Part shown: one piece after another, positions 33,901 through 36,900 of the stretch
Layout of the letters: the number at the start of each line of letters is the position of its first letter
Numbering within the stretch: position 1 is the first letter of the stretch
Assembly: GCF_045037415.1 (NCBI RefSeq)
Contig: NZ_CP173438.1
Strand: one strand, 5' to 3'
DNA from: Escherichia coli
Lineage (GTDB): Bacteria; Pseudomonadota; Gammaproteobacteria; Enterobacterales; Enterobacteriaceae
Length of the DNA stretch: 64,000 nucleotides
Made by a program: the position numbers

Positions 33901-36900
33901 ATCGCGCGGAAAAACCAGGTCATTATGCAGGCCTGCTGCGACGTGCTGAATCGCCCGCTGCAAATTGTTGCCTCTGACCAGTGCTGTGCGCTCGGTGCGG
34001 CGATTTTTGCTGCTGTCGCCGCGAAAGTGCACGCAGACATCCCATCAGCCCAGCAAAAAATGGCCAGTGCGGTAGAGAAAACCCTGCAACCGCGCAGCGA
34101 ACAGGCACAACGCTTTGAACAGCTTTATCGCCGCTATCAGCAATGGGCGATGAGCGCCGAACAACACTATCTTCCAACTTCCGCCCCGGCACAGGCTGCC
34201 CAGGCCGTTCCGACTCTATAAGGACACGACAATGACGATTTTTGATAATTATGAAGTGTGGTTTGTAATTGGCAGCCAGCATCTTTACGGCCCGGAGACT
34301 CTGCGCCAGGTGACGCAACATGCGGAACACGTTGTTAATGCACTGAATACAGAAGCGAAGTTGCCCTGCAAACTGGTGCTGAAACCGCTGGGCACCACGC
34401 CGGATGAAATCACCGCTATTTGCCGCGACGCGAATTACGACGATCGTTGCGCTGGTCTGGTGGTGTGGCTGCACACTTTCTCCCCGGCCAAAATGTGGAT
34501 CAACGGCCTGACCATGCTCAACAAACCGTTGCTGCAATTCCACACCCAGTTCAACGCGGCGCTGCCGTGGGACAGCATCGACATGGACTTTATGAACCTG
34601 AACCAGACCGCGCATGGCGGTCGCGAGTTCGGCTTCATCGGCGCGCGTATGCGTCAGCAACATGCCGTTGTTACCGGTCACTGGCAGGATAAACAAGCAC
34701 ATGAGCGTATCGGCTCCTGGATGCGTCAGGCGGTCTCTAAACAGGATACCCGTCATCTGAAAGTCTGCCGTTTTGGCGATAACATGCGTGAAGTAGCGGT
34801 CACCGATGGCGATAAAGTTGCCGCACAGATCAAGTTTGGTTTCTCCGTCAATACCTGGGCGGTTGGCGATCTGGTGCAGGTGGTGAACTCCATCAGCGAC
34901 GGCGATGTTAACGCGCTGGTCGATGAGTACGAAAGCTGCTACACCATGACACCTGCCACACAAATCCACGGCGAAAAACGACAGAACGTGCTGGAAGCGG
35001 CGCGTATTGAGCTGGGGATGAAGCGTTTCCTGGAACAGGGTGGCTTCCACGCTTTCACTACTACCTTTGAAGATTTGCACGGCCTGAAACAGCTTCCTGG
35101 TCTGGCCGTACAGCGTCTGATGCAGCAGGGCTACGGCTTTGCGGGCGAAGGCGACTGGAAAACTGCCGCCCTGCTTCGCATCATGAAGGTGATGTCAACC
35201 GGTCTGCAGGGCGGCACCTCCTTTATGGAGGACTACACCTATCACTTCGAGAAAGGTAATGACCTGGTACTCGGCTCCCATATGCTGGAAGTCTGCCCGT
35301 CGATCGCTGTGGAAGAGAAACCGATCCTCGACGTTCAGCACCTTGGTATTGGCGGTAAAGACGACCCGGCTCGCCTGATCTTCAATACTCAAACTGGTCC
35401 GGCCATTGTCGCCAGCCTGATTGATCTCGGCGATCGTTATCGTCTGCTGGTTAACTGCATCGACACGGTGAAAACACCGCACTCCCTGCCGAAACTGCCG
35501 GTGGCGAATGCGCTGTGGAAAGCGCAACCGGATCTGCCGACCGCTTCCGAAGCGTGGATCCTTGCCGGTGGCGCGCACCATACCGTCTTCAGCCATGCGC
35601 TGAACCTCAACGATATGCGCCAGTTCGCCGAGATGCACGACATTGAAATCACGGTGATTGATAACGATACCCGCCTTCCAGCGTTTAAAGACGCGCTGCG
35701 CTGGAACGAAGTGTATTACGGATTTCGTCGCTAAGTAGCCGCATCAGGTATGTAACGCCTGATGCGACGCCGACGCGTCTTATCAGGCCTACACGCTGCG
35801 ATTTTGTAGGCCGGATAAGCAAATCGCATCCGGCACGAAGGAGTCAACATGTTAGAAGATCTCAAACGCCAGGTATTAGAAGCCAACCTGGCGCTGCCAA
35901 AACACAACCTGGTCACGCTCACCTGGGGCAACGTCAGCGCCGTTGATCGCGGGCGCGGCGTCTTTGTGATCAAACCTTCCGGCGTCGACTACAGCATCAT
36001 GACCGCTGACGATATGGTCGTGGTCAGCATCGAAACCGGTGAAGTGGTTGAAGGTACGAAAAAGCCCTCCTCCGACACGCCAACTCACCGGCTGCTCTAT
36101 CAGGCATTCCCGTCCATTGGCGGCATTGTGCACACACACTCGCGCCACGCCACCATCTGGGCGCAGGCGGGTCAGTCAATTCCGGCAACCGGTACCACCC
36201 ACGCCGACTATTTCTACGGTCCCATTCCCTGCACCCGCAAAATGACCGACGCAGAAATCAACGGTGAATATGAGTGGGAAACCGGTAACGTCATCGTAGA
36301 AACCTTCGAAAAACAGGGTATCGATGCAGCGCAAATGCCCGGCGTCCTGGTCCATTCTCACGGCCCATTTGCATGGGGCAAAAATGCCGAAGATGCGGTG
36401 CATAATGCCATCGTGCTGGAAGAGGTCGCTTATATGGGTATATTCTGCCGTCAGTTAGCGCCGCAGTTACCGGATATGCAGCAAACGCTGCTGGATAAAC
36501 ACTATCTGCGTAAGCATGGCGCGAAGGCATATTACGGGCAGTAATGACTGTATAAAACCACAGCCAATCAAACGAAACCAGGCTATAATCAAGCCTGGTT
36601 TTTTATTGGATTTTCAGCGTGGCGCAGGCAGGTTTTATCTTAACCCGACACTGGCGGGACACCCCGCAAGGGACCGAAGTTTCCTTCTGGCTGGCGACGG
36701 ACAACGGGCCGTTGCAGGTTTTCCTTGCGCCGCAAGAGTCCGTGGCGTTTATTCCTGCCGATCAGGTTCCCCGCGCTCAGCATATTTTGCAGGGTGAACA
36801 AGGCTTTCGCCTGACGCCGCTGGCGTTAAAAGATTTTCACCGCCAGCCGGTGTATGGCCTTTACTGTCGCGCCCATCGCCAGTTGATGAATTACGAAAAG

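Follow-up and report, generated by a model that had tools for sequence, protein, structure and literature searches.

The promoter of the polB (dinA) gene of Escherichia coli K-12, which encodes DNA polymerase II, was reportedly mapped by Iwasaki et al. in 1990 and the footprint of LexA on it determined. The gene is included in the list of the SOS regulon given in PMC6590174, and the tables of a tiling-array study place it both among the UV-induced genes and among the transcripts with a LexA motif (PMC3009722). Two further kinds of described system are relevant here: the classic intrinsic terminator, and the leader attenuators (trp, pyrBI and the riboswitch type), in which, as at the locus described here, a terminator hairpin separates a start codon from the regulatory site ahead of it.

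The window (the whole 64,000-nucleotide stretch of E. coli DNA that was analyzed) contains the junction between the araBAD operon and polB. All of the components of this junction are already known: the SOS box of polB, the araBAD terminator and the transcription start site (TSS), which a public table lists. The arrangement that we describe, to which we assign a probability of roughly 90%, is that the hairpin between araD and polB is the intrinsic terminator of araBAD and shares its DNA with the SOS-regulated polB promoter, so that polB transcripts begin within the hairpin and escape attenuation by it.

The araD–polB spacer and its LexA box

In the window, araD occupies positions 35849–36544 on the plus strand, with its TAA stop codon at 36542–36544, and polB follows on the same strand at 36619–38970, starting from a GTG codon. 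Both coding sequences were taken from the list of open reading frames and agree with the annotation of several complete E. coli genomes that are 100% identical over a 601-bp stretch around the spacer and have araD and polB annotated on its flanks; for araD, the annotation of K-12 agrees as well. The spacer measures 74 bp, the same length as in K-12, where the corresponding position is obtained as 102399 minus the window position. araD closes the araBAD operon, the transcripts of which require a terminator.

The spacer on the other side of araD differs in length from that of K-12. Between araA and araD (35735–35848) the window has 114 bp with REP-like palindromes. The K-12 spacer measures 284 bp and carries an annotated REP6 cluster (66575–66815); the window lineage thus has fewer REP copies. 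For this region, the tables of Romero 2014 list the araD–araA REP cluster only.

A pattern search identified the LexA box as the 20-mer GACTGTATAAAACCACAGCC at 36546–36565, identical to the polB box in PMC3009722. Its core, CTGTATAAAACCACAG, of the form CTGT-N8-ACAG with an AT-rich center, spans 36548–36563, corresponding to −48 to −33 relative to the TSS at 36596. The original prediction had placed a LexA box directly after the araD stop codon, and this is where it lies: the 20-mer and its core begin 2–4 nt past the stop. The bare CTGT-N8-ACAG pattern occurs twice in the 64 kb, compared to an expectation of 0.67, and 14 of 100 shuffled sequences contained at least two sites. The pattern is therefore not significant by itself, and the case for the box rests on its identity with the published polB box and on its conservation, since it was found in all 78 aligned enterobacterial loci (see below). 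The other occurrence in the window, at 21652–21667 (CTGTTGCTGTGCACAG), lies inside an open reading frame of 331 aa (21616–22611) and has a GC-rich center unlike those of LexA boxes; judging from the sequence, it is probably a chance match.

polB transcription starts inside the hairpin

The spacer as a whole (74 nt) folds at −21.8 kcal/mol (z = −4.28), and none of 200 shuffled sequences folded as well. The spacer contains a hairpin of 11 pairs, in which the 5′ arm GAAACCAGGCT (36574–36584) pairs with the 3′ arm AGCCTGGTTTT (36592–36602) around a 7-nt loop (36585–36591). The T tract TTTTTTATT (36599–36607) consists of six T residues at 36599–36604 followed by ATT. A hairpin with a T6 tract between the LexA box and the polB GTG codon had been predicted at nearly these positions, and that description was accurate. 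With a GC-rich 7-bp core extended by A/U pairs, a free energy of about −16 kcal/mol for the hairpin alone, a trailing U6AUU, and a stem that begins 30 nt past the stop codon of the last gene of a co-directional unit, the hairpin has the makeup of a classic intrinsic terminator. What sets it apart is that the promoter of the next gene uses this loop and these arms as its −10 hexamer, spacer and start region.

Our terminator scan reported this hairpin on the minus strand only. We read the omission on the plus strand as a result of greedy stem extension, in which AAA/TTT pairs plus a G-T pair use up four of the T residues. The searchable Term-seq tables (Adams 2021) contain no 3′ end for araD; the cultures were probably grown without arabinose, and the absence is probably due to araBAD being unexpressed under such conditions.

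The original prediction recognized both box and hairpin and overlooked a perfect −10 hexamer, TATAAT, at 36584–36589, which occupies the loop together with the closing base pair of the stem. This hexamer starts exactly 20 nt beyond the core of the LexA box, which therefore covers the −35 region. A weak −35-like hexamer, CAGCCA (36561–36566; 3/6 match), is separated from the −10 downstream by 17 bp. It shares its first three bases with the end of the LexA box core; this CAG is fixed by the box, and the remainder varies among species. The box thus overlaps the core promoter, and the 5′ arm of the hairpin doubles as the promoter spacer (−22 to −12). A consensus promoter scan with a per-hexamer threshold of 4/6 reported nothing in the spacer region, probably because the −35 hexamer, at 3/6, falls below that threshold, and given the mapped TSS we did not take this result as evidence against a promoter. 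The sequence TATAAA inside the LexA box was also considered as a −10 element and was rejected, because it is without a −35 element, lacks the final T and has no TSS mapped to it.

The geometry of this promoter predicts a start at about 36596, within the 3′ arm. Table S1 of Kim et al. 2012 lists a polB TSS of MG1655 at K-12 position 65803(−), equivalent to 36596 on the plus strand of the window, with a 23-nt 5′ UTR; the upstream 51-mer given there, GACTGTATAAAACCACAGCCAATCAAACGAAACCAGGCTATACTCAAGCCT, ends in ...TATACTCAAGCCT (PMC3415461). This start falls within the 3′ arm, 7 nt past the −10 hexamer. In K. pneumoniae, the polB TSS from the same source lies 8 nt after TATAAT, in the same GCCTGG arm, and leaves a 24-nt UTR (PMC3415461). 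This is the position equivalent to that of E. coli plus 1; the starts in the two genera are mutually consistent and fit the −10. The read counts are low (2 in E. coli and 4 in K. pneumoniae), as expected for an SOS gene under conditions without SOS induction. At the coarse resolution of the tiling array, the polB transcript induced by UV has its 5′ edge 46–47 nt past the first base of the box motif, at about 36593–4 (PMC3009722). The K-12 promoter is otherwise the same as that in the window with respect to the LexA 20-mer, the spacing, the GTG start and the length of the spacer; it has TATACT where the window has TATAAT, and TTTTTTGATGG after the stem where the window has TTTTTTATTGG (36605–36606). 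As to the accuracy of such array edges, we take them to fall within 2 nt of the promoter position for recA and to be off by about 30 nt for lexA.

Since the TSS lies in the 3′ arm, the polB mRNA is made without the 5′ arm and cannot form the hairpin, and folding of the leader from 36596 onward gave no significant structure (z = +0.43). An Rfam scan of the region returned no leader or riboswitch family above threshold. The sole match, below threshold, was to the C0465 sRNA at 36568–36685 on the minus strand (23.5 bits compared to a gathering cutoff of 40; E = 0.05), which probably arose by chance on account of the hairpin. No competing antiterminator structure or leader peptide was found for polB. 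A Shine-Dalgarno-like TGGA at 36607–36610, 8 nt before the GTG, is a weak candidate for the polB ribosome-binding site, and a purine-rich GGA or GAG occurs at the equivalent place in other genera. A full-text literature search brought up nothing relevant on the polB promoter or on AraC/polB read-through.

Kim et al. 2012 assigned a second low-count TSS to polB, at K-12 65946(−) (PMC3415461), which corresponds to 36453 on the plus strand of the window, in the 3′ part of araD. Immediately upstream of this position the window has TATATT and K-12 has GATATT. A transcript starting there would meet the terminator after about 150 nt, a layout that resembles that of a 3′-end-derived small RNA.

The same stretch can thus be followed in two roles. 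As araBAD RNA, GAAACCAGGCU-AUAAUCA-AGCCUGGUUUU followed by UUAUU would act as a canonical Rho-independent terminator, and its anatomy and evolution suggest that araBAD transcripts end about 55–65 nt past the araD stop codon, in the U tract at about 36603–36607. As DNA, the TATAAT loop, together with the poor −35 hexamer CAGCCA over the right half of the LexA box, constitutes the polB promoter. LexA bound at −48 to −33 would presumably block the access of RNA polymerase to the −35 region, and cleavage of LexA upon DNA damage would free the promoter, in line with established SOS regulation. This step also draws on the tiling-array study, in which polB was induced by UV (PMC3009722). The resulting mRNA has a short, unstructured, U-rich leader of 23 nt, a weak Shine-Dalgarno sequence and a GTG start codon, and its first nucleotides are again read from the terminator, +4 to +12 being the T tract that serves as the U-tail of araBAD. 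Because the 5′ arm lies ahead of the first nucleotide of the polB mRNA, the hairpin would insulate polB from arabinose-driven (PBAD) transcription rather than attenuate it. According to Stringer et al. 2014, read-through of the araBAD terminator is said to raise polB expression in arabinose; if so, the insulation is incomplete. Termination of araBAD by the hairpin had been raised as an alternative in the original prediction and was essentially right, as was its corollary of a later polB start, except that this start is within the hairpin and not beyond it.

Conservation of promoter and hairpin in Enterobacteriaceae

We fetched 80 enterobacterial loci around the N-terminus of polB, and the resulting alignment comprised 78 sequences (76 loci, the window and K-12). 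In almost all of the fetched loci, araD is located upstream of polB. The gap between the two genes, counted with the window and K-12 included, is 74–112 bp in 41 cases, 121–400 bp in 17, which have REP-like palindromes, and 0.7–1.5 kb in the rest. The −10 hexamer is TATAAT in 67 of the 78 aligned sequences and TATACT in the other 11, and it is separated from the LexA box by 20 nt throughout, except for two Pseudocitrobacter loci with 21 nt. Given that box, spacing and −10 are kept across the aligned loci, which represent many enterobacterial genera, promoter and operator are universally conserved as one unit. The 12 nt directly after the box are scrambled between loci.

The hairpin has a different history. 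Counting a hairpin as strong at ΔG ≤ −10 kcal/mol and araD as adjacent when it lies within 400 bp upstream, a strong hairpin with its 3′ arm is present in 56 of 58 loci with araD adjacent, compared to 9 of 18 with a 0.7–1.5 kb insert (Fisher p = 1.4e-5, uncorrected for phylogeny); in 9 of these 18 the 3′ arm has decayed. The inserted DNA in the 18 loci carries various open reading frames on either strand, and in most of them a new GC-rich hairpin is found close behind araD, with a clear T run in about half. Where the insert is of the REP type and without T runs, the hairpin was retained in 17 of 17 cases, and the T-rich tail is kept in the loci that retain the hairpin. This pattern is as expected if the job of the hairpin is to terminate araBAD. 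There are two kinds of exception: Pluralibacter gergoviae (L067) has araD adjacent and has lost the hairpin, and the hairpin is also lost in Pseudocitrobacter (L040/43/48), where another co-directional open reading frame ends about 85 nt upstream. The polB promoter persists where the hairpin has been lost, for example in Salmonella. In three loci (L032, L037 and L039; Phytobacter and Kosakonia sp.), in which the ancestral 3′ arm is gone, another short hairpin, CTCGCC-GATAATGA-GGCGAT, is present downstream of the polB −10; it lies in the polB leader and is without a T tract.

Pairing was evaluated on the 53 distinct sequences with araD adjacent. Base pairing is maintained, with 86.8% of the cells paired, compared to 16–65% in slid controls, and the eight core pairs are formed in 48–53 of the 53 sequences. 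Compensatory changes are few: three pairs show double changes, in eight cells (for example, A-U to G-C in L076). We considered covariation as proof of the hairpin and rejected it, since a stem with so little variation is not informative in this respect; it is thermodynamics and context that support the RNA structure. Such a frozen stem is unlike typical terminators and is likely a consequence of the dual use of the DNA, in which the 5′ arm is held as promoter spacer, the 3′ arm stays complementary to it, and loop and arms together double as promoter parts.

Within the 5′ arm, the element AAACCAGG (36575–36582, −21 to −14) is conserved even in lineages without the 3′ arm (L011, L018, L014, L032, L037, L039, L040, L043 and L048). 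Written as AAACCAGG(C/T), it has G at −14 in 78 of 78 sequences and C at −13 in 71 of 78. Since the element is kept where the 3′ arm is lost and the neighboring 12 nt are scrambled, it is under a constraint that is independent of the terminator. It contains the Dcm site CCAGG. The −10 hexamer itself is polymorphic within E. coli at position 36588, with TATAAT in 2419 and TATACT in 2928 (54%) of 5426 complete genomes. A C at −13 together with a TATACT-type −10 is characteristic of sigma-S-preferred promoters. TATACT with C at −13 resembles such a −10; the window carries TATAAT. RpoS-dependent expression of polB is reported in the review PMC6590174, with reference to Dapa 2017.

Competing explanations and meaning of the overlap

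The constraint on AAACCAGG, tuning by the A/C difference at −8, and cross-talk between promoter occupancy and termination could together mean that the overlap is a selected coupling device and more than mere compaction. We regard this as a doubtful extension of the main reading. If it were true, AAACCAGG could serve as a determinant of the extended −10 or sigma-S type, as a Dcm CCAGG site or as the site of another factor; the A or C at −8 could set how sigma-70 and sigma-S share the promoter, and with it the basal level of Pol II, while leaving terminator strength untouched; and LexA or RNA polymerase at the polB promoter could affect termination and read-through of araBAD and be affected by them in turn, thereby linking the level of Pol II to arabinose metabolism.

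The near-invariance of the core arms across genera, with almost no compensatory change, and the conservation of the 5′ arm independently of the hairpin would also fit a DNA operator, in which the inverted repeat AACCAGGC-N9-GCCTGGTT around the −10 is (also) the site of a putative dimeric regulator of polB that keeps the arms invariant. The RpoS dependence reported in PMC6590174 likewise means that polB is under control beyond LexA. However, the conservation is asymmetric: when the hairpin is lost, the 5′ arm alone survives, whereas a palindromic operator needs both arms. Moreover, loss of the 3′ arm tracks the acquisition by araD of its own terminator, pointing to a role at the level of RNA, and the trailing T tract is a feature of terminators and not of operators. 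We therefore consider a regulator site very unlikely as the reason for the invariant arms.

The original prediction held that the polB transcript must read through the hairpin, which could act as an attenuator: transcription would begin at the LexA box or shortly beyond it, and most polB transcripts would be cut short by the hairpin unless it is suppressed. The hairpin and T tract do sit between the box and the GTG codon, and the TATAAA in the box could pass for a −10. This reading fails on the position of the start, which in both genera with a mapped TSS is within the 3′ arm, leaving polB with the structureless leader described above; the UV-induced edge is likewise near 36593–4 and not near 36565, and the conserved 20-nt distance from box to TATAAT puts the box over the −35 region. 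Unlike the leader attenuators, polB starts inside its hairpin and has no antiterminator alternative, leader peptide or Rfam leader family, and its promoter stays in lineages such as Salmonella from which the hairpin is gone. The original prediction had named a TSS downstream of 36605 as the observation that would speak against attenuation. That limit was set too far downstream, as any start beyond 36574 already does away with attenuation, and the mapped start is at 36596. Attenuation is, in our estimate, highly improbable.

Least probable of all is that the hairpin serves mainly, as a bidirectional or antisense terminator, to stop a short antisense RNA that starts inside polB and covers its ribosome-binding site: a Cappable-seq TSS at K-12 65769(+) (window 36630, minus strand, 12 nt inside polB) has a TAAGAT hexamer 7 nt upstream, and the scan called the hairpin as a minus-strand terminator, but this TSS is weak (score 2.7, where we take the cutoff to be 1.5), and pervasive starts of this kind number in the thousands. 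On the minus strand, moreover, the tail UUUCGUUUGAUU makes a less good U tract than its plus-strand counterpart, and the hairpin tends to be retained where araD is adjacent, a property of the plus strand. A minus-strand RNA from 36630 would be antisense to the polB start codon and the entire 5′ UTR, and would meet the hairpin in reverse.

With the hairpin read as the araBAD terminator overlapping the polB promoter, Pol II is not under the control of a leader attenuator, which leaves the occupancy of the −35 region by LexA as the main control, in addition to the choice of sigma factor. The current understanding of the SOS response is unchanged by this arrangement. What is added is modest: the explicit geometry, in which the loop holds the −10 and the 3′ arm the TSS, an evolutionary natural experiment, and a common −10 polymorphism in E. 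coli. The spacer nevertheless provides a clean and evolutionarily supported case in which one stretch of DNA is both the terminator of one operon and the promoter of the next gene. This dual use explains why the terminator is so unusually frozen, and it means that araBAD deletions, which are common, or induction of PBAD could perturb the expression of polB.
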